Below are positions 448 through 46,976 of a stretch of 46,976 bases of DNA, piece by piece. The stretch spans positions 1 through 46,976 of the forward strand of contig JBAZXC010000007.1 of assembly GCA_041660065.1 (NCBI GenBank). The letters are read 5' to 3'. The notes below the pieces were generated by a model. The model was not told the origin of the DNA. It made no database searches and was given only the letters and a program-made list of their open reading frames with translations. This DNA comes from Parcubacteria group bacterium (GTDB lineage Bacteria; Patescibacteriota; Minisyncoccia; Moranbacterales; GCA-2747515). Position numbers and translations under genes: made by a program. Positions within the stretch are counted from its first letter, which is position 1. Each line of letters begins with the position of its first letter.

Positions 448-476
448 TGTGGATTCCCGCCTTCGCGGGAATGACA
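448..476 (-). repeat. GTCAT-headed hairpin repeat (stem ATTCCCGC/GCGGGAAT, loop CTTC)
   Basis: Reverse complement reads TGTCATTCCCGCGAAGGCGGGAATCCACA. Same unit as 21947..21992 but without the insert. Confidence 0.85.
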
Positions 477-2069: not shown

Positions 2070-4154
2070 ATGAAGAAAAAAATTTTCGTCATTATGGTAA
2101 GTGCGATGGTCTTTGGCATTGCAACCTGGATTGTCCATGATCGCTATGAGACATTCACAGGTGAATTTTTTTTAGGCATTACTCTCTTGAGTGGTGTCAT
2201 AATCTCATTCTTGTGTACAAGAAGAGAAAAGGAAAAAAAAGAACATGAAAACATCATCAGGCAACTGCAGGAAAACACAGTTTCGTGCAACAAAAGTCAA
2301 CTGGAGATCTATTTTTTACACACACCGCTTGCGGTAATTGAATGGAATTTGGATTTTACCGTACGGTCATGGAATGATAAGGCGCAGGAGATTTTTGGAT
2401 ATTGCGCACAGGAGATGATCGGTAAGCATGCAAAGTGTCTTGTGCCGGTGTGCCATCAGGACAAAATCGTGGCAGTTGGTGATAATTTGCTCAAAGGAGG
2501 TCTTGGACAAGAAAATATTTTTAAAAACATCACGAAAGATGGTCGCATAATCTATTGTGAATGGATCAATACACCGATCAAGGAGCGGACTGGATGTATT
2601 TTATCAGTGTATTCTCTCGTGCAAGATATCACACAAAAATATTGTGCGGAAAATGATCTGCGAGACAGTCAGGAGAAGCTTGATAGGATTCTCAGCGCTT
2701 TGCATGATCTTGTTTTTGTGATCGAAGATGATGGCAGGATCAGTTATGCCAATGCAGTGGCACATGACTTGGTTGGCGTGCCAATGGAGAGGCGTGGCAA
2801 TGTACATTTTTCCGAAATTTTAAGTGATGATGATCAGAAAATCGCACGCAGGAGAATCGAGCTGGCGATCAAAACACAACGCGTATTATCTCCGCAAGTC
2901 TATCATTTACGAAAAATAGATGAGGACAATGCGGACGTGCCGGTGGAAATTGTCGCCGTGCCATTTGTGGAAGGAGGTAAACAAAAAGTTCTCGGTGTGG
3001 CGCGAGTGATTTCCGATCGGTTGGAATTGGACGAAAAGAGATCACAAGAAGAACGGATGCAATCTATCGGTGTCATGGCAGGAGGAATCGCACATGATTT
3101 CAATAACTTGCTCATGGTCATCGAAGGACATGCATCAATGCTCAAAATGAATGGTCTAAAAGATGCTGATAGACATCTGGAAAGCATCATGACGGCAGTA
3201 CAACGGTCTGTGGCTTTGACGCAACAGTTACGTACTTTTGCAAAAGGGGGCGTTTCAGTCAAAGAGGTAACTTCTGTTGCGCGAGTGATCAGGGAAACCG
3301 CAAGTTTGGTACTTGGCTCCAATTCACCAAGTCGTTGTGATTGTGATTTTGCAAACGATCTCAAGGATTCCTTTGTAGATCCAAAGCAGATCGGGCAGGT
3401 CTTTCAAAATCTCCTGATCAACGCAAGTCATGCGATGCCGAACGGAGGAATTATTCGTGTCGTTGGAAAAAATGTGAAGATCGATGAAGAAAATCAGTTA
3501 TTGATTAATCCGGGAGAGTATGTGCAATTCTCTGTACAAGATTCTGGTATAGGAATTGCACACAAATATCTTTCAAAGATCTTTGAGCCATATTTCACAA
3601 CAAAAGGTTCAAGAGAAGGCACAGGACTTGGTCTTACGGTGGCATATTCTATCATCAAAGAACACGGAGGATATATCAGCGTGGAATCAGCTCTTGGTGA
3701 AGGAACGACATTTCATGTTTATCTACCCGCCACCACATCGAAAGAATTGGGTGTGGTAGTGGTAAAAGAAAAAGAGGGTCGCAATAGATCCCTCTCTATA
3801 CTTCACGTGGAGGATCAGGATGCCAATGGAGATTTGATGGTGGAAATATTACACGCGTTTGGGCATAGTTGTGAATCAGTTGTCGATGGATCAATGGCAC
3901 TTCCATTGTACAAAAGCGCGTGTGAGACAGGGAAGTGTTTTGATCTGGTTATTACAAACCTCACGATTCCTGGTGGAATGGGTGGCTTGGAACTCATAGA
4001 AAAACTGCGAAACTATGATAAGAACGTAAAATTTATCATTACATCGGGATATGCGAAAAATCTGCCTGAGGAGTATAAGGAGATATTTTTGCAGAAACCA
4101 TTTAATATTTCGAAGATGAAAGAGTTGATTGATGTTGTCGTGAATGGACGATAA
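2070..4154 (+). CDS. Hybrid sensor histidine kinase with two N-terminal TM segments, PAS domains, HisKA, HATPase and a C-terminal receiver
   Basis: H-box IAHDFNNLL; N/G boxes (NLLINASHAMP, DSGIGI, GTGLGL); receiver-like tail (LHVEDQD...DLVITNLTIPGGMGG). GGGAGG lies 8 nt upstream of ATG 2070, and an in-frame GTG at 2067 is an alternative start. Confidence 0.9.
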   Translation: MKKKIFVIMVSAMVFGIATWIVHDRYETFTGEFFLGITLLSGVIISFLCTRREKEKKEHENIIRQLQENTVSCNKSQLEIYFLHTPLAVIEWNLDFTVRSWNDKAQEIFGYCAQEMIGKHAKCLVPVCHQDKIVAVGDNLLKGGLGQENIFKNITKDGRIIYCEWINTPIKERTGCILSVYSLVQDITQKYCAENDLRDSQEKLDRILSALHDLVFVIEDDGRISYANAVAHDLVGVPMERRGNVHFSEILSDDDQKIARRRIELAIKTQRVLSPQVYHLRKIDEDNADVPVEIVAVPFVEGGKQKVLGVARVISDRLELDEKRSQEERMQSIGVMAGGIAHDFNNLLMVIEGHASMLKMNGLKDADRHLESIMTAVQRSVALTQQLRTFAKGGVSVKEVTSVARVIRETASLVLGSNSPSRCDCDFANDLKDSFVDPKQIGQVFQNLLINASHAMPNGGIIRVVGKNVKIDEENQLLINPGEYVQFSVQDSGIGIAHKYLSKIFEPYFTTKGSREGTGLGLTVAYSIIKEHGGYISVESALGEGTTFHVYLPATTSKELGVVVVKEKEGRNRSLSILHVEDQDANGDLMVEILHAFGHSCESVVDGSMALPLYKSACETGKCFDLVITNLTIPGGMGGLELIEKLRNYDKNVKFIITSGYAKNLPEEYKEIFLQKPFNISKMKELIDVVVNGR

Positions 4155-14784: not shown

Positions 14785-14841
14785 GTAAAATACGGACAAA
14801 AGAGATAGGGGGGTGTTTGATTATAAGTATATGAAGATGAC

Positions 14842-14872
14842 AAAAAACAGAGTATGAATGACTCTGTTTTTT
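14842..14872. terminator. Bidirectional rho-independent terminator between the cupin gene (+) and tRNA-Leu (-)
   Basis: AAAAAACAGAGT-ATGAATG-ACTCTGTTTTTT; a 12-bp stem flanked by an A-run and a T-run. Confidence 0.85.
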
Positions 14873-14878
14873 GATTTG

Positions 14879-14965
14879 TGGTGCCTCGGGAGAGACTCGA
14901 ACTCTCACATCCTTGCGAATACTGGATTTTGAGTCCAGCGCGTCTACCAATTCCGCCACCGAGGC
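14879..14965 (-). tRNA. tRNA-Leu (anticodon CAA), class II with long variable arm, CCA encoded
   Basis: Minus-strand read: GCCTCGG TG GCG GAATTGGTAGA CGC G CTGGA CTCAAAA TCCAG TATTCGCAAGGATGT GAGAG TTCGAGT CTCTC CCGAGGC A CCA. All four stems pair. Confidence 0.95.
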
Positions 14966-14969
14966 ATAA

Positions 14970-15212
14970 TTATTTTATGTTTCGTTTTATCCACTCTTTG
15001 CCACAGCCACTTTTGAGAAACTTTTCTCGCAAACGTGCAGTCGGTCTATCGTTATACTTTTCTGTTAAAACAGTATTAAATGGTGCATACGGCCTTGTGG
15101 TTTTATTTTGTCCACAGTTGTGTTCCTCCATCCTTCGTTGGATATTATTTGTTATGCCAACATAAATATACGATTTTGTATTGCTGGAAATAACATAGAC
15201 GTAATATGCCAT
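14970..15212 (-). CDS. GIY-YIG nuclease family protein (small, YhbQ/URI-like)
   Basis: MAYYVYVISS..SYIYVGITNNIQRRMEEHN carries the GIY/YIG, Arg and Glu motifs. The stop codon lies 4 nt from the tRNA 5' end. The listed 100-aa ORF (to 15272) adds a translation of the tRNA fragment and the palindrome. Confidence 0.85.
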   Translation of the reverse strand: MAYYVYVISSNTKSYIYVGITNNIQRRMEEHNCGQNKTTRPYAPFNTVLTEKYNDRPTARLREKFLKSGCGKEWIKRNIK

Positions 15213-15226
15213 ATTGTTATAATATT

Positions 15227-15272
15227 GTCTACCAACCTGCCTGCCGGCAGGCAGGTTCCGCCACCGAGGCAT
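15227..15272 (-). repeat. Duplicated 5' fragment of tRNA-Leu (acceptor 5' strand plus D-arm), interrupted in the D-loop by the 20-bp palindrome
   Basis: Minus strand: AT GCCTCGGTGGCGGAA [CCTGCCTGCCGGCAGGCAGG] TTGGTAGAC. It is identical to tRNA positions 1-24 plus 2 upstream nt (14942-14967). Confidence 0.9.
15234..15257. repeat. Perfect 24-bp palindrome AACCTGCCTGCCGGCAGGCAGGTT (20-bp core at 15236-15255)
   Basis: Self-complementary. The core recurs at 21962-21981 and 28153-28172, and a split copy forms the outer arms of 28141-28185. Confidence 0.95.
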
Positions 15273-15365: not shown

Positions 15366-15394
15366 TTGGAGTACTTGTGCTAGTATAGTATAAT
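15366..15394 (+). promoter_or_regulatory. Putative parA promoter
   Basis: TTGGAG-17 nt-TATAAT, about 60 nt upstream of the parA ATG. Confidence 0.45.
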
Positions 15395-15454
15395 TATTGT
15401 AGTAAATCAAGACGGGGTTTTTCCGTGTGGCTTTTTAATCTTAAATTACGTGTA

Positions 15455-21946: not shown

Positions 21947-21992
21947 GTCATTCCCGCGAAGCCTGCCTGCCGGTAGGCAGGGCGGGAATCTA
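21947..21992 (+). repeat. Composite repeat: a GTCAT hairpin unit with the 20-bp palindrome inserted in its loop
   Basis: GTCATTCCCGCGAAG [CCTGCCTGCCGGTAGGCAGG] GCGGGAATCTAG. Without the bracketed 20 nt it matches the unit at 448-476. Confidence 0.9.
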
Positions 21993-22130
21993 GTATCGGC
22001 ATTCCCATTCCGATTTTTCGAGGACAAACTTTACGGGAATGACAAAATGATCGTATGTGGAAAAATAGTAGAATGATGATGTATTTTCAGCAAAAATGAG
22101 ATTTTCAAACTTGCTTTCTTGAAAAAAATC

Positions 22131-27060: not shown

Positions 27061-28110
27061 ATGAATATCAAAAAAATACAAGATGCCGATGTCCAAGGGA
27101 AAAACGTAATTGTGCGCGTGGATTTCAATATATCGATCGATGACACAAAGGACGTGAAGTCTTCATATAAACTGCGTGCGGCGCAAGAGACGATCGAACA
27201 TCTTTTGCGCAGTGGAGCAACGCATGTGGCGCTTTTGACACACTTCGGACGTCCGGATGCAAAAGATGATCCGGATAATTCTGTGCAAAATATTGCGGAT
27301 GATGCAGAGCGCATTTTGGGGCGGAAGATCGTTTTTGTGTCAGACTGCATCGGTGAAAAAGTCGTTGATGCTCTTACCGCAACTGATCCTGGCACAATTT
27401 TGCTTTTGGAGAATGTCCGTTTTTATGCAGAGGAGGAGACTGATGATGCGTCATTTGCATCGGCATTGTGCGCGCCATTTGATATCTATGTCAATGAAGC
27501 ATTTGCTGTGAGTCACAGGAAGCATGCGTCCGTGCATGCGATCACACGGTGTCTTGATGCGTATGCCGGCTTGTGGTTGCAGAAAGAACTGGACAATTTG
27601 GAAAAGGTAAAAAATGATCCGCAGCATCCGGCAGTGGCGATCATCGGTGGTGCAAAGATCGAAACAAAAATTCCCGTGATCAACGAATTGGCAAAAAAAT
27701 ACGATAAAGTTCTCGTCGGGGGTCGCACTGCTGTTGAAGCGCAAGAGCAAAAGTTGGTGCTGGGGGATAATGTCATATTTCCTGTCGATTTTATGGATCA
27801 ATTTTATGACATTGGTCCACAGACGATCGAGCGATTTTGTCAGGAGATCGCTACTGCACGAACGATCGTATGGAACGGACCGATGGGGAAGATCGAGGAT
27901 GACGAATACAAAAAAGGCACGCTTGCACTTATCGAGCAGATTACTGCAAATACGGAAGCATACAGTTTGATCGGTGGTGGAGAGAGTGTGCAAATGGCAG
28001 AGGAAAGCGGATTGATAGAAAAATTCTCTTTTGTGTCTACGGGTGGTGGTGCAACGCTTGTGTACTTGGGCGGTGAGGAAATGCCAGGGATTGATGTATT
28101 GATGAAATAG
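27061..28110 (+). CDS. pgk: Phosphoglycerate kinase (short, 349 aa)
   Basis: VRVDFN, LLENVRFYAEEE, GGAKIETKI, WNGPMG and STGGGATL motifs. About 45 aa shorter than typical PGK in the C-domain. Confidence 0.9.
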   Translation: MNIKKIQDADVQGKNVIVRVDFNISIDDTKDVKSSYKLRAAQETIEHLLRSGATHVALLTHFGRPDAKDDPDNSVQNIADDAERILGRKIVFVSDCIGEKVVDALTATDPGTILLLENVRFYAEEETDDASFASALCAPFDIYVNEAFAVSHRKHASVHAITRCLDAYAGLWLQKELDNLEKVKNDPQHPAVAIIGGAKIETKIPVINELAKKYDKVLVGGRTAVEAQEQKLVLGDNVIFPVDFMDQFYDIGPQTIERFCQEIATARTIVWNGPMGKIEDDEYKKGTLALIEQITANTEAYSLIGGGESVQMAEESGLIEKFSFVSTGGGATLVYLGGEEMPGIDVLMK

Positions 28111-28140: not shown

Positions 28141-28185
28141 AACCTTGCCTACCCTGCCTACCGGCAGGCAGGCGGCAGGCAGGTT
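28141..28185. repeat. Self-nested palindrome: a 20-bp core inserted at the centre of another copy of the same palindrome
   Basis: AACCTTGCCTAC [CCTGCCTACCGGCAGGCAGG] CGGCAGGCAGGTT. Removing the bracketed 20 nt restores a 25-nt copy of the 15234-15257 palindrome. Confidence 0.9.
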
Positions 28186-28318: not shown

Positions 28319-29569
28319 ATGACAAAAATTACAAAAATTATGGCGCGGGAGATCTTGGATTCTCGTGGTAATCCGACGGTTGAGGCGGAAGTCCACCTTG
28401 AGGATGGGACAAAAGCATGGTCACAAGTACCAAGCGGGGCATCAACTGGTGAATTTGAAGCGCTGGAATTGCGCGATGGAGATGCAAGGCGTTTTGATGG
28501 TAAAGGCGTGTTGAAAGCGGTGGAGCATGTAAATGGAGAGATTGCGGGAAAGATCGTTGGTATGGATGTACAGGAGCAATTGGCGATCGATGAGGCGATG
28601 ATCGCGCTTGACGGCACGGAAAACAAGGCGCGCTTGGGTGCAAATGCAATTCTTAGCGTGTCACTTGCTGTGTGTCGTGCCGGTGCAATCGCCGTTGGAC
28701 AACCATTATACAAATATATTACACAGATCCATGGTGGAAAAACTGTGCGGATGCCTGTGCCGATGTTCAATGTGATCAACGGTGGCAAACATGCAGACAG
28801 TGGCTTGTCGATCCAGGAGTACAAGGTCGTGCCACGTGGCATCAAGACGTTCAAAGAGCAATATCGTGCGGGCGCGGAGATTTTTCATGCATTGCAAAAA
28901 AATCTTTCTGAAAAAAAATTATCTACAGGAGTTGGAGATGAGGGTGGCTTTGCACCGCGCCTGGAAAGCAATCATGCACCGCTTGTGGAGATCAAAAATG
29001 CTGCAGAAAAAGCGGGGTATGCGATGGGTACCCAAATCAGTATCGCGATCGATGCCGCGGCAAATTCTTTTTATTGTCAGGATTGCAAACAATATAAATT
29101 TGAACTGGAGGATGAGTCACTCACCAAAGAGCAACTTCTCGCACGCTATGATGAATGGGTCGCCAACGATCATGTGTTTAGCATTGAGGATGGTTTGACG
29201 GAGTATGACTGGACAGGGTGGCATGAGATGTACGAAAAATTCAATGAGCGCATTATGCTTATCGGTGATGACTTGCTCGTAACCAATACAAAGCGATTGC
29301 AACGGGCGATCGATGAAAAATCCTGCAATGCCGTACTCATCAAACCAAATCAGATCGGTACGGTATCAGAAACGTTGCAATGTATTGCGCTCGCGCAAAA
29401 GAATAATATGCGCGTGATCGTATCGCATCGTAGCGGGGAAACGGTTGATGATTTTATTGCGGATCTTTCAGTGGGTGCTGGTGCGGATTTTATCAAGACG
29501 GGGTCGCTTTCTCGCGGTGAGCGATTGTGTAAATATAATCGCTTATTGACAATTGAAGAACAACTATAA
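28319..29569 (+). CDS. eno: Enolase
   Basis: AREILDSRGNPTVEAEV, SGASTG, IKPNQIGT, SHRSGET. Confidence 0.97.
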   Translation: MTKITKIMAREILDSRGNPTVEAEVHLEDGTKAWSQVPSGASTGEFEALELRDGDARRFDGKGVLKAVEHVNGEIAGKIVGMDVQEQLAIDEAMIALDGTENKARLGANAILSVSLAVCRAGAIAVGQPLYKYITQIHGGKTVRMPVPMFNVINGGKHADSGLSIQEYKVVPRGIKTFKEQYRAGAEIFHALQKNLSEKKLSTGVGDEGGFAPRLESNHAPLVEIKNAAEKAGYAMGTQISIAIDAAANSFYCQDCKQYKFELEDESLTKEQLLARYDEWVANDHVFSIEDGLTEYDWTGWHEMYEKFNERIMLIGDDLLVTNTKRLQRAIDEKSCNAVLIKPNQIGTVSETLQCIALAQKNNMRVIVSHRSGETVDDFIADLSVGAGADFIKTGSLSRGERLCKYNRLLTIEEQL

Positions 29570-44588: not shown

Positions 44589-46976
44589 ATGAATAAAAAA
44601 TATAAAAGACTTCTTACAGTTATCGCAATTCTTGTTGTGGTTGGAGGCATCTATTATACAATACGCACTGTACAAAGTGCTGATTACACATTTATACAAA
44701 CAGACTGGAGTGGAGGACAGTCTGGTGATGTTGCTGTGCATGAGACTAATCGTGTGGGATGGACAAAATATAGTACAAAAAATGGTAACCTCATATCCGG
44801 CAGTGAGCTAAGTTCTGCTGATGTTTCTGCAATAATAGAAAAAACAAGCGACTTGGATTTCAGTTCAGGTGCTTTTTCTGGTGTGGCGATTTATGGGTCG
44901 GGCACGGATGCCAATTTACAATTACAACAGGAGATCTCAATTGATGGAGGTACTGGATCCGATGGTAGCTATGCTTGTACAACGGGTACGTGTGTCCTAA
45001 CGGCAAATACATACAACTATACAACATTTGATATTTCTGCCGGAGCCATAGTAAAAGTGATCGGCTCAAATGCTTTGGTAATTAAGGCTACCGGAGATGT
45101 TACTATTGATGGTGTTTTGGATCTCGCGGGAGGCAATGAAGTTTATGCGTGTGGACAATTTTGGTGTGGCGGAGGTGGAGGCGGTGGCAATGGTGGCACA
45201 TACAATCGTGCTGGAGGGGCATCATTGACTGGAGGCGGGGCGGGAGGCGCTATCAAACAGGGCGGAAAATCCGCAGGAGGTGGCGGTGGAGGTGGCACAA
45301 CATCTGGAAGCCTTGGCGGAGGCGGAGGCGGGACGGTATATATTAATTCAAATCAAAATATTGTCATATCTAATACAGGCACGCTTACTGCCAAGGGAGG
45401 CTCATCTAATGGAGGGGTTTTTGGTAAAATGGGTGGCAATGGAGCTGGGGGAAAAATTGTTTTAACAAGTGCGACAATAACTAATAATGGATTAATTGAT
45501 GCAACGAGCCCTAATAATGGGTATCCTCAAGGTGAATTTGGCATCATTACGTTGATATACAATGCATTTTCTGGCACGATTCCAAGTGGCAGTACTTCTC
45601 CAGGTTTGTCAACGGCATATCCAAGTGTAGGTACATATGTCTCTGATGTTCTTGATACAAATCAAAATCCGCAATTTACAGAACTTGCATATAATACAAC
45701 ATTAAATGGTCAAGCGATCACAATAGATGTGCGTGCAGGTAACACAATAATGCCGGACGAAACATGGACGGTTTGGCAGACTAATATTGTAAACGGAGGG
45801 GATATCAGTGCGTTTTCTGGTAATCGGTATATACAATATCGTGTGAATTTTTCTACAACAGATACTGTCGTGACGCCAATCTTACATGATATTACATTTA
45901 ATTATCATTACATTCCATCTATCCAAGAGCTTACCTCAAATATATTTAATACTCAATCAAATCGCATTACTGTCACTGATCTTCAATGGACTGAGGTTTT
46001 TTCACAAAATACGGATATTGCATTCCAAATTCGTACATCGCCAAACGGTGTGAGCTGGAGCAATTGGTGTGGACCAGATGATGGCGTGAGTGGATTATGC
46101 AATTCAATCACATATTTTACTGATCCTATGGGTGGTGAAATGATTGATGACACACAAAGAGATCAATCAAATGATCAATATGTGCAATACAAAGTATCTC
46201 TCAGTTCTATGGATGGGCAAAATACCCCAATACTTTCTGACGTTTCCATTTCATATGCGGCAATCGATATGCCAGGAGCAACTACACAACAAGTAACTGA
46301 TATTTCACAAGATCAAGTGACTGCACATGCCACAGTCATATCAACTGGTAATGAAAATCCAACGCGAGCAATTCAATATACAACTACAAGCAACAACTAC
46401 ACGGGCGCACAAGAATGTTCTGCAGGTACAGGCAGTATTGGCGCATATAGTTGCCAGATAACAAATCTCACATCAAACACAACTTACTACGTAAGGGCGA
46501 AAGCAACAAACTCAGCGGGAACTATTTATGGGGACGAGCTTTCATTCACCACATTGCAAGAAGAGATCATAATTCAAGATCCGGATACAGATAAAATATC
46601 GGATGCAGTCACAGACGGCTACATCACCATAGACAACGGCTCCATCACCGATACCGCACAAGCAACCACAACAGTAAACGTCACAGTACAAGATGGCACC
46701 TTTCAAATGGAGCTCCCACAAAACACTCAAATCACCGGTGACGGCAGTTTCAATTTCCAACAATTCACAGCACAAAACGTTACACAAGCAGTGCGAGATG
46801 AACAACCCACCAGCAGAGTAGCTATAGACGTAGGCGTCCCAGGAGAATCTCTCAACTTCTCAGAAGACATCACCCTCCAGATCTACGTCGGCACAGCATT
46901 CAACACCATGGAAATGGCCATCCTCTACCAAAACGACGGAGATCCCACATGGTACACCCACACAACCCCCACATGC
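44589..46976 (+). CDS. Large cell-surface protein, N-terminal 796 aa (open at the 3' window edge)
   Basis: Hand-translated from ATG 44589 with no stop to 46976; missing from the ORF track because it is open-ended. It has a signal anchor LLTVIAILVVVGGIYY, Gly-runs in a beta-helix-like segment, and an Fn3-like segment (TSNTTYYVRAKATNSAGTIYGDELSFTT). Confidence 0.85.
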   Translation, partial: MNKKYKRLLTVIAILVVVGGIYYTIRTVQSADYTFIQTDWSGGQSGDVAVHETNRVGWTKYSTKNGNLISGSELSSADVSAIIEKTSDLDFSSGAFSGVAIYGSGTDANLQLQQEISIDGGTGSDGSYACTTGTCVLTANTYNYTTFDISAGAIVKVIGSNALVIKATGDVTIDGVLDLAGGNEVYACGQFWCGGGGGGGNGGTYNRAGGASLTGGGAGGAIKQGGKSAGGGGGGGTTSGSLGGGGGGTVYINSNQNIVISNTGTLTAKGGSSNGGVFGKMGGNGAGGKIVLTSATITNNGLIDATSPNNGYPQGEFGIITLIYNAFSGTIPSGSTSPGLSTAYPSVGTYVSDVLDTNQNPQFTELAYNTTLNGQAITIDVRAGNTIMPDETWTVWQTNIVNGGDISAFSGNRYIQYRVNFSTTDTVVTPILHDITFNYHYIPSIQELTSNIFNTQSNRITVTDLQWTEVFSQNTDIAFQIRTSPNGVSWSNWCGPDDGVSGLCNSITYFTDPMGGEMIDDTQRDQSNDQYVQYKVSLSSMDGQNTPILSDVSISYAAIDMPGATTQQVTDISQDQVTAHATVISTGNENPTRAIQYTTTSNNYTGAQECSAGTGSIGAYSCQITNLTSNTTYYVRAKATNSAGTIYGDELSFTTLQEEIIIQDPDTDKISDAVTDGYITIDNGSITDTAQATTTVNVTVQDGTFQMELPQNTQITGDGSFNFQQFTAQNVTQAVRDEQPTSRVAIDVGVPGESLNFSEDITLQIYVGTAFNTMEMAILYQNDGDPTWYTHTTPTC

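Follow-up and report, generated by a model that had tools for sequence, protein, structure and literature searches.

Why is an intact tRNA-Leu(CAA) gene preceded by a minute nuclease gene and, beyond it, by a partial copy of its own 5' end that is interrupted by a palindrome? We addressed this question in a contig of 46,976 nucleotides (nt) from a Parcubacteria group bacterium (GenBank assembly GCA_041660065.1, contig JBAZXC010000007.1), the whole of which was analysed and is referred to below as the window. Positions 14,879 to 15,272 hold a cassette in which a GIY-YIG protein of 80 amino acids (aa) is encoded next to a 20-nt palindrome, here termed PAL. We found that this cassette belongs to a large and conserved family of modules in which a nuclease gene and a palindrome are embedded at a tRNA gene. 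Probably, the protein is a nuclease similar to the recently described Ssn enzymes for single-stranded DNA, residing together with PAL as its cognate site in a tRNA transcription unit, and the duplicated tRNA end is a by-product of break repair near PAL.

Architecture of the cassette

Read along the minus strand, the cassette and its borders consist of the following elements, where ORF stands for open reading frame and pseudo-tRNA for the partial tRNA copy.

15382-15410, minus strand: putative sigma-70-like promoter TTGATT-N17-TATACT upstream of the pseudo-tRNA (consensus scan)
15272-15256, minus strand: outer pseudo-tRNA segment, AT followed by GCCTCGGTGGCGGAA (tRNA-Leu nt 1-15), an exact direct repeat of 14951-14967
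15255-15236, no strand assigned: PAL, the perfect 20-nt palindrome CCTGCCTGCCGGCAGGCAGG, inserted exactly between tRNA nt 15 and 16 (D-loop)
15235-15227, minus strand: inner pseudo-tRNA segment, tRNA-Leu nt 16-24, TTGGTAGAC
14 nt, minus strand: spacer between the inner pseudo-tRNA segment and the GIY-YIG ORF
15212-14970, minus strand: GIY-YIG nuclease gene, single-domain, 80 aa plus stop (Pfam, homolog N-termini)
4 nt, minus strand: gap TTAT between the ORF stop and tRNA-Leu(CAA)
14965-14879, minus strand: intact tRNA-Leu(CAA) with encoded CCA (ARAGORN; Rfam RF00005, 61 bits; 7/7 acceptor-stem pairs)
14841-14873, no strand assigned: terminator-like hairpin with T/A runs on both sides, just past the tRNA and before a convergent cupin gene

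An earlier note on this DNA had described a GIY-YIG cassette bracketed by a tRNA duplication at this site, and all the elements and positions it gave were confirmed. The intact tRNA-Leu(CAA) begins with GCCTCGGTGGCGGAATTGGTAGAC, and the upstream fragment reproduces its nt 1-15 and 16-24 with PAL between them and without any target duplication at the nt 15/16 junction. The 15-mer GCCTCGGTGGCGGAA occurs exactly twice in the 47-kb window, against 0.02 occurrences expected from shuffled sequences, and the 17-nt direct repeat has a spacing of 305 nt, the cassette being a unit of 305 bp. The repeat bracketing it is the end of a tRNA (17 nt + 9 nt), as in the direct repeats of integrative elements; no recombinase is encoded between the repeats, where the only ORF is the 80-aa GIY-YIG gene.

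The gene call P0001 over-extends this ORF to 100 aa (14970-15272, minus strand), beginning at an ATG made by the flank and tRNA nt 1, and thus translates the pseudo-tRNA and PAL (MPRWRNLPAGRQ...). Judged by the N-termini of the homologs, the true start of the nuclease is the ATG at 15212. Spurious starts like that of P0001 are also present in P0002, P0004, P0023 and P0027, and miscalled homologs carry the N-termini PAGRQ or ACRQAG, which are PAL in translation, and the C-termini PRWRNW, the translated tRNA 5' end. The earlier note had traced odd automatic N-termini to the tRNA fragment, and this proved right for P0001 as well as for several homologs.

A minimal nuclease

The 80-aa protein matches the GIY-YIG domain model PF01541 with 58.8 bits (cut-off 22.6; E = 7e-16). 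Its AlphaFold2 model (pLDDT 94.8) is a bare GIY-YIG core with the order strand-strand-helix-strand-helix-helix; all 80 residues lie inside this core, and neither Pfam nor the model revealed an accessory or DNA-binding domain. Among 32 aligned family members Y17, R27 and H31 are invariant, while Y6 and E63 are conserved in at least 90%. Foldseek matched the model with UPF0213, Slx1, I-TevI and UvrC N-terminal domains. Among solved structures the closest are the UPF0213 entries 1zg2 and 1ywl (E ~1e-7) and the Slx1 nuclease domain, which superposes with a TM-score of ~0.7 and a root-mean-square deviation of 2.4-2.8 Å. The NCBIfam, PADLOC and PHROGs libraries yielded nothing specific for the 80-aa protein, and a profile search aimed at Neisseria SsnA gave, among the matches listed, only close relatives. 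Homologs are stand-alone proteins of ~78-80 aa, from the candidate phyla radiation (CPR)/Patescibacteria, Ignavibacteria and others.

The closest relative of the window cassette (locus L081) has the same layout beside a divergent upstream gene. The nuclease is under strong purifying selection, with 81% aa identity between the two loci, a dN/dS of 0.05 and a pS of 0.70, at which synonymous sites are saturated. Despite this saturation the promoter block TTGATT-N17-TATACT is conserved in L081, and the non-coding stretch composed of AT, tRNA nt 1-15, PAL and TTGGTA is identical at 42 of 43 positions (19 of 20 within PAL). The homology in the window does end exactly after GGTAGAC, as the earlier note had it; because the L081 pseudo-tRNA extends to about nt 33, this boundary is a lineage-specific deletion and not the end of an element.

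Recurrence of the cassette across bacteria

For comparison we used the best 80 of more than 563 relatives (one genome per GTDB species), L081 and one viral contig. These 82 loci plus the window contain 87 ORF copies, and the loci are not phylogenetically independent. A tRNA-Leu gene lies directly downstream on the same strand in 57 of the 87 copies (5'-type, to which the window belongs), with a median stop-to-tRNA gap of 4 nt that does not exceed 13 nt in 54 of the 57, and directly upstream in another 15 (3'-type). The remaining copies are internal to tandem arrays (4), situated at contig ends or Ns (9) or without a called tRNA-Leu (2). Further GIY-YIG genes abutting a tRNA, with a duplicated tRNA end on the far side, for which the earlier note had suggested a search, occur as both types. 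All five leucine anticodons are used (CAA 32, GAG 17, TAA 8, TAG 8, CAG 7).

The hosts belong to CPR/Patescibacteria, Bacteroidota, Ignavibacteriota, Planctomycetes, Nitrospirota, Thermodesulfovibrionia and Omnitrophota, and they include the isolates Salinimicrobium sediminis, Daejeonella, Melioribacter and Algoriphagus. The compact layout is found in more than 70 independent assemblies, and the profile search returned at least 6,475 protein clusters at 90% identity. PAL, allowing up to three mismatches, adjoins 72 of the 87 ORF copies, and most of the others have indel or degenerate variants of it.

Among the loci sampled through PAL, the same palindrome also accompanies more distant GIY-YIG paralogs at other tRNA genes. 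At L139 (700-1260) the flank and nt 1-11 of tRNA-Asn are followed by PAL, nt 12-25, the paralog ORF and tRNA-Asn(GTT). At L145 (4300-4900) two fragments, each consisting of tRNA-Ser nt 1-16, PAL and nt 17-26, the second of them ORF-less, stand with a distant-paralog ORF and an intact tRNA-Ser(GGA). Both loci carry the PAL found at the tRNA-Leu cassettes. Separately, a UPF0213/YhbQ-like GIY-YIG ORF of 111 aa in L185 (4913-5480) is closely followed by two perfect PAL copies and has no tRNA gene in its vicinity. The UPF0213 branch, too, may be associated with PAL.

Conservation and folding of PAL

The 82 loci (L001-L082) and the window contain 93 copies of PAL, 51 of them perfect. Across phyla, invariance reaches at least 96% at stem positions 1-7 and 14-20, and variation is concentrated at positions 8, 9 and 13, beside the CCGG loop. 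No compensatory covariation was detected in the stem among the 93 copies; invariance without covariation is the signature of sequence-specific recognition by a protein rather than of a mere RNA or DNA helix. As single-stranded DNA (ssDNA), PAL forms a hairpin of 8 bp (-8 kcal/mol), which the AA/TT flanks in the window extend to 10 bp (-13 kcal/mol) on either strand. That PAL is nearly the same in Patescibacteria, Bacteroidota, Planctomycetes and Nitrospirota implies that, in thousands of genomes, a protein and this DNA site form a pair under tight constraint. Such cross-phylum near-identity of a 20-nt DNA sequence is very unusual. The earlier note had treated the palindrome as an incidental interruption of the tRNA fragment, a view that no longer holds, PAL being the most conserved DNA feature of the cassette and a dispersed repeat not private to this site.

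Of the variants, G8A and C13T are the commonest, each being the reverse complement of the other. PALs upstream of the ORF carry G8A more often than C13T (8 against 5), and those downstream carry C13T in about 6 copies and G8A in 0-1, all small numbers from related loci. This orientation bias hints that the hairpin of one strand is the functional one. The use of the variants as a polarity marker was dropped, the copies being few and the loci not independent.

Pseudo-tRNA and breakpoint

Throughout the family the ORF is flanked on one side by the intact tRNA and on the other by a partial copy of this local tRNA, which carries PAL. The order in 5'-type cassettes is tRNA nt 1 to x, PAL, nt x+1 to y, a short spacer, the ORF, a few nt and the intact tRNA; 3'-type cassettes, mostly from Bacteroidota, are the mirror image, with the intact tRNA, the ORF, nt y to x, PAL and nt x+1 to the 3' end. 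Positions and breakpoints were evaluated in 33 cleanly fitted 5'-type cassettes. In 16 cassettes PAL comes after nt 12-16 (in 13 of these after nt 15, like in the window), in 9 after nt 22-24 and in 8 after nt 31-32. These sites are in, or border, the D-loop and the anticodon loop, and the insertions are precise and free of target duplication. The 3'-type PALs are mostly at the borders of the T-loop (nt 62-68). Two PALs are present in L052 and L055, and a PAL within a PAL in L031.

The outer segment matches the local functional tRNA without a mismatch in 30 of the 33 cassettes, though acceptor stems differ between genomes. In L038 and L059 the fragment with PAL stems from another tRNA-Leu and not from the functional gene next to it, whose acceptor stem is perfect; this acceptor-stem pairing test is informative only for tRNAs with encoded CCA (L038, L059), extraction of the 3' strand being unreliable elsewhere. 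The pseudo-copy ends a median of 10 nt past PAL (interquartile range 9-13), and its end tracks the position of PAL (Spearman rho 0.82, p = 5e-9), a coupling that is partly forced by y > x and comes from phylogenetically related loci.

Usually just 0-15 nt separate the pseudo-copy from the start codon, too few for a promoter between pseudo-tRNA and ORF. This and the median gap of 4 nt before the tRNA fit the co-transcription of nuclease and tRNA that the earlier note had proposed. The layout gives good support to the presumed co-transcription of fragment, PAL, ORF and tRNA, and the promoter predicted at 15382-15410 is the probable start of this transcript.

Dynamics of the module

Tandem arrays of the unit occur in L001, L009, L014, L054 and L069. 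For one Bacteroidota protein, alleles with one copy (L088, L091, L093) and with two copies (L092, L089) of an identical unit coexist in environmental samples, and L088 also has an ORF-less, PAL-bearing 5' pseudo-copy. Following an ORF and an intact tRNA-Leu(CAA), L011 contains four tandem units of 192 nt (3230-4100), each of them a nearly complete, PAL-disrupted and ORF-less tRNA-Leu copy, which means that PAL-bearing pseudo-tRNAs can amplify on their own. A neighbour-joining tree of 87 ORF sequences is star-like and weakly resolved, and thus usable for coarse statements only; its clades follow isoacceptor and PAL position in part, and in places CPR and Bacteroidota sequences intermingle. The resulting picture is of a module that persists for long and is mostly inherited vertically, with repeats mediating its gain and loss and with a relocation now and then.

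Solo PAL copies and NTS hairpins

PAL is not confined to cassettes. Two copies with one mismatch each are present elsewhere in the window (21962-21981 and 28153-28172), with 0 expected by chance. The features concerned are the following.

21947-21991, plus strand: solo PAL (21962-21981, 1 mismatch) in the loop of an NTS hairpin, GTCATTCCCGCGAAG/PAL/GCGGGAATCTAG
449-476, minus strand: unfilled Neisseria-type NTS/SRM hairpin TGTCATTCCCGCGAAGGCGGGAATCCAC, of the same sequence as the PAL-filled NTS at 21947-21991
28144-28185, no strand assigned: PAL (28153-28172, 1 mismatch) nested in a PAL-like palindrome, intergenic

Once PAL is taken out, 21947-21991 matches the published Neisseria NTS CGTCATTCCCGCGMAVGCGGGAATCYRG perfectly (PMC11893778), and the NTS/SRM hairpin is the published cognate site of SsnA (PMC11893778). 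An empty and a filled NTS in one window show PAL to be inserted as a discrete 20-nt unit, with no duplication of the target. The window has no SsnA-like gene, so the genome may encode a second, NTS-specific Ssn protein elsewhere. The PAL-filled NTS is followed by a second, inverted NTS-like half (GTCATTCCCGTAAAG..., minus strand, ~22000-22046), so that two hairpin-repeat families are interleaved over 21947-22046. The PAL-in-PAL at 28144-28185, a nesting also seen in L031, lies between the ORFs 27061-28110 and 28319-29569, which by their sequences look like genes for phosphoglycerate kinase and enolase, and it may also serve as a terminator.

When metagenome contigs were scanned for exact PAL regardless of ORFs, at least 120 stretches were obtained. 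Among the matches listed, 51 PAL copies had at least 450 nt of flank on each side, and 50 of these lacked both a GIY-YIG ORF within 200 nt and a tRNA-Leu within 500 nt. Solo copies thus far outnumber cassette copies, as is the case for NTS and for repetitive extragenic palindromic (REP) sequences. Several solo PALs are inside SRM-type hairpins or other inverted repeats. A perfect flanking stem of at least 7 bp accompanies 6% of 80 solo metagenome copies, compared with 1.1% of random junctions (Mann-Whitney U test, p = 0.013). The proposition that PAL always inserts in hairpin loops fits the copies in tRNA arms, in NTS and in PAL itself; the solo copies reduce it to a tendency.

Among 2.9 million viral contigs we found 35 stretches with exact PAL and a single match to the nuclease protein, a scarcity of both PAL and gene indicating that the system is essentially cellular. 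One viral contig of 29.5 kb (IMGVR_UViG_3300037242_000417; L236, L243, L244) contains six exact PAL copies; it may represent a phage whose host carries PAL, or else cellular DNA that was classified wrongly.

As to the remaining surroundings in the window, the cassette lies among housekeeping genes, with BacA, FolD, a deoxyribosyltransferase-like protein and a cupin on one side and ParA and ParB on the other. Unrelated to the cassette, a long ORF running off the window end (44600-46976) is Gly-rich, contains repeats and resembles a large surface protein.

Proposed mechanism and alternative explanations

If the pair does function as an Ssn-like nuclease with its cognate palindrome, PAL would be recognised as an ssDNA hairpin and the cut would fall a few nt away, by analogy with the Ssn enzymes. 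The ORF would have no promoter of its own; the tRNA promoter would drive a transcript running from the PAL-bearing fragment through the ORF into the tRNA, which tRNA processing would then set free. With PAL lodged in the loop of a tRNA arm, a break would arise about 10 nt from it, and repair of the break by copying the ORF-plus-tRNA sequence would rebuild the tRNA and leave the PAL-bearing stump behind as a repair scar. The direct tRNA repeats created in this way would allow tandem gain and loss as well as homology-guided transfer between like tRNA genes. Such transfer would explain why a lineage stays with tRNA-Leu, and residence in an essential tRNA operon would make the module hard to lose.

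Several observations weigh against this account. The view of PAL as the substrate is based on co-localisation and on the Ssn analogy, the association between PAL and gene comes from contig-level data, and the origin of the tRNA duplication as a repair scar is a model, in which the coupling between PAL and breakpoint is in part forced as noted above. The preference for hairpin loops is seen in only ~6-10% of the solo copies. PAL is symmetric, has no GTC/CGTC tag and does not conform to the SRM consensus (HGTCWY...), and no SRM was found near these ORFs, the one match in 436 kb of ORF-centred loci lying away from them. The tRNA may also have a promoter of its own within the ORF's 3' end. The genomic context of the protein P0025 is fixed in 24 contigs and that of L081 is as in the window; such fixed contexts mean that the module can be stably vertical. 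Finally, the empty tRNA-Leu site in relatives that the earlier note had looked to was not found, as the closest relative and all the multi-contig proteins examined carry the cassette.

A bolder extension of this account, which we regard as possible but doubtful, is that PAL is a 20-nt mobile palindrome, spread in trans by the 80-aa ssDNA nuclease without transposase or recombinase chemistry, and that the nuclease gene anchors itself through PAL-directed break repair in tRNA genes, duplicating the tRNA end and rebuilding the tRNA. Were PAL mobile, it would be among the smallest mobile DNA units known and would represent a new mode of transposition-like spread by a hydrolase plus host repair, with tRNA-Leu, tRNA-Ser and tRNA-Asn genes colonised across many phyla.

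The module might instead be a domesticated and immobile Ssn-type host system that for example limits recombination or transformation at PAL-marked DNA, its place in the tRNA-Leu operon being ancient and vertically inherited and the pseudo-tRNA an old duplication kept identical by gene conversion rather than arising from continued insertion. The fixed context in the 24 P0025 contigs and in L081 agrees with this, as do the strong purifying selection, the ORF clades that partly track isoacceptor and PAL position, the near absence of the gene from viral contigs (1 match) and such a role of SsnA in Neisseria (PMC11893778). We nevertheless consider it rather unlikely, given that PAL occupies several positions, sometimes twice, in the pseudo-copies, that 5' and 3' mirror types both exist, that tandem copy number is polymorphic within populations and that some fragments are non-cognate (L038, L059). 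Moreover, the weakly resolved tree in places intersperses CPR with Bacteroidota sequences, and a study of horizontal gene transfer in Patescibacteria lists a GIY-YIG protein among donated genes, a link to the present family not being shown there (PMC12455944).

Still less probable is a classical free-standing homing endonuclease that cuts cassette-free tRNA-Leu genes, the double-strand break then being repaired by copying the cassette via its tRNA homology arms, with PAL incidental. Strict linkage of the gene to tRNA-Leu of all isoacceptors across phyla, direct tRNA repeats flanking the unit and the fragments from a different tRNA-Leu in L038 and L059 would all follow from homing; there is also weak similarity to homing endonucleases in PHROG and NCBIfam, and a precedent in the tRNA cluster of phage T4, where SegB is a GIY-YIG homing enzyme (PMC2330249). 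However, an 80-aa core without a DNA-binding domain, located 4 nt from an intact and presumably cleavable tRNA-Leu and accompanied by a partial copy identical up to PAL, does not make a good classical homing endonuclease. Nor can incidental insertion account for a palindrome that is present in nearly all cassettes, is invariant across phyla and recurs with paralogs at tRNA-Asn and tRNA-Ser. In addition, no empty-site polymorphism was found in L081 and the multi-contig proteins; copy number, one against two units, is polymorphic.

An RNA-level role in cis, with the pseudo-tRNA and its GC hairpin serving as a processing signal, stabiliser or attenuator for the ORF or tRNA-Leu, is very improbable. 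It would suit the stable hairpin in the 5' leader in the window and the co-transcription suggested by the layout, but PAL is downstream of the ORF in 3'-type cassettes, so that no single RNA role fits both types; furthermore, the stem is invariant without covariation, the majority of PAL copies stand alone at a distance from the gene, and no Rfam match besides the tRNA was obtained.

A remnant attL/attR pair of a larger integrase-borne island, to which the repeated tRNA end would point, such direct repeats being typical of integrative elements that target tRNAs, and a chance or assembly artefact are both effectively refuted because the layout recurs in more than 70 independent assemblies including isolates, with 0.02 occurrences of the repeat expected by chance in the window and neither a recombinase nor more than 305 bp in the unit. 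The insertion in the manner of attL/attR or homing put forward in the earlier note is therefore upheld as regards the duplicated tRNA end, which is recurrent, and disfavoured as regards the mechanism: there is no sharp att-like end, the breakpoint tracks PAL, no recombinase is present, and the nuclease does not suit classical homing.

The arrangement offers a testable case of a minimal module, selfish or domesticated, lodged in an essential tRNA operon without killing it, and culturable hosts are available in Salinimicrobium sediminis, Daejeonella, Melioribacter and Algoriphagus. Should PAL be the substrate, it would provide a second nuclease/hairpin pair, sequence-distinct and symmetric, for the site-specific ssDNA nucleases, a class of stated biotechnological value. 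The module also accounts for widespread annotation errors, namely over-extended GIY-YIG ORFs, tRNA-Leu pseudogenes and truncated tRNA calls.

Comparison with known systems

The closest parallel is with the Ssn proteins, which are single-domain GIY-YIG enzymes; SsnA has 94 aa and the catalytic residues Y6, Y17 and E64 (Chenal et al. 2025, PMC11893778). Ssn enzymes bind the NTS/SRM hairpin repeat, which occurs beside the gene of the enzyme and, in hundreds of copies, dispersed elsewhere, and they cut only ssDNA, a few nt from the hairpin, with recognition dependent on both sequence and structure (PMC11893778). The protein described here is likewise a single-domain GIY-YIG, of 80 aa, with Y6, Y17 and E63 at nearly the same positions, a likeness drawn from the published size, residue positions and repeat layout of SsnA. 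PAL flanks the gene, forms a hairpin and is dispersed, as does the repeat of 20-30 nt in the Ssn system, and its conservation in sequence without covariation parallels the sequence-specific recognition by Ssn. The ~10-nt spacing between PAL and breakpoint is compatible with an SsnA-like cut a few nt from the hairpin. In contrast to the Ssn repeats, PAL is nearly invariant across phyla instead of co-diverging with the nuclease, and the gene resides in a tRNA unit with partial tRNA duplication, whereas the word tRNA is absent from PMC11893778.

The REP/REPIN elements and their associated RAYT proteins also combine a single-copy nuclease gene flanked by its own palindromes with repeats that are dispersed in many copies, long-lived and largely vertical. 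RAYTs, however, are HUH/Y1 (IS200/IS605-type) transposases with strand transfer, while the protein here is a GIY-YIG hydrolase, which cannot rejoin DNA alone; REPs carry GTAG or CGTC tags and are not tRNA-embedded. With UPF0213 and Slx1 the protein shares the closest sequence and structure, Slx1 being specific for the structure of branched DNA. Slx1 differs in working with Slx4 and having a RING domain, and neither Slx1 nor UPF0213 is known to be linked to tRNA genes or PAL, L185 aside.

A regenerating logic is known from the mobile mitochondrial endonuclease ORF associated with atp6 in Allomyces, which brings a replacement gene end and leaves the resident end as a pseudo-fragment; its target is a protein-coding organellar gene, and it is not known to have a conserved palindrome. 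SegB of phage T4 is a GIY-YIG homing enzyme in a tRNA cluster (PMC2330249). The T4 Seg enzymes share with the module the GIY-YIG catalytic domain, a site among tRNA genes and spread via gene conversion of flanks, but they and I-TevI have ~200-250 aa with a DNA-binding domain, are phage-borne and are not known to have an associated palindrome or a partial target duplication.

In the literature searched there was no report of a GIY-YIG gene at tRNA-Leu with a duplicated tRNA end, nor of PAL, and an exact-string literature search with the PAL core gave unrelated primers and constructs only. The view of the earlier note that no element class of this kind had been described thus stands for the tRNA-embedded layout and falls for the pairing of a nuclease with a flanking hairpin, which matches Ssn/NTS (PMC11893778) and REP/RAYT. 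We classify the module with a kind already known, a nuclease with a cognate dispersed hairpin repeat. Not reported for Ssn/NTS and REP/RAYT are its residence in tRNA genes with regeneration of the tRNA, a symmetric repeat that is invariant across phyla, and precise insertions of this repeat without target duplication, also into other hairpin repeats.

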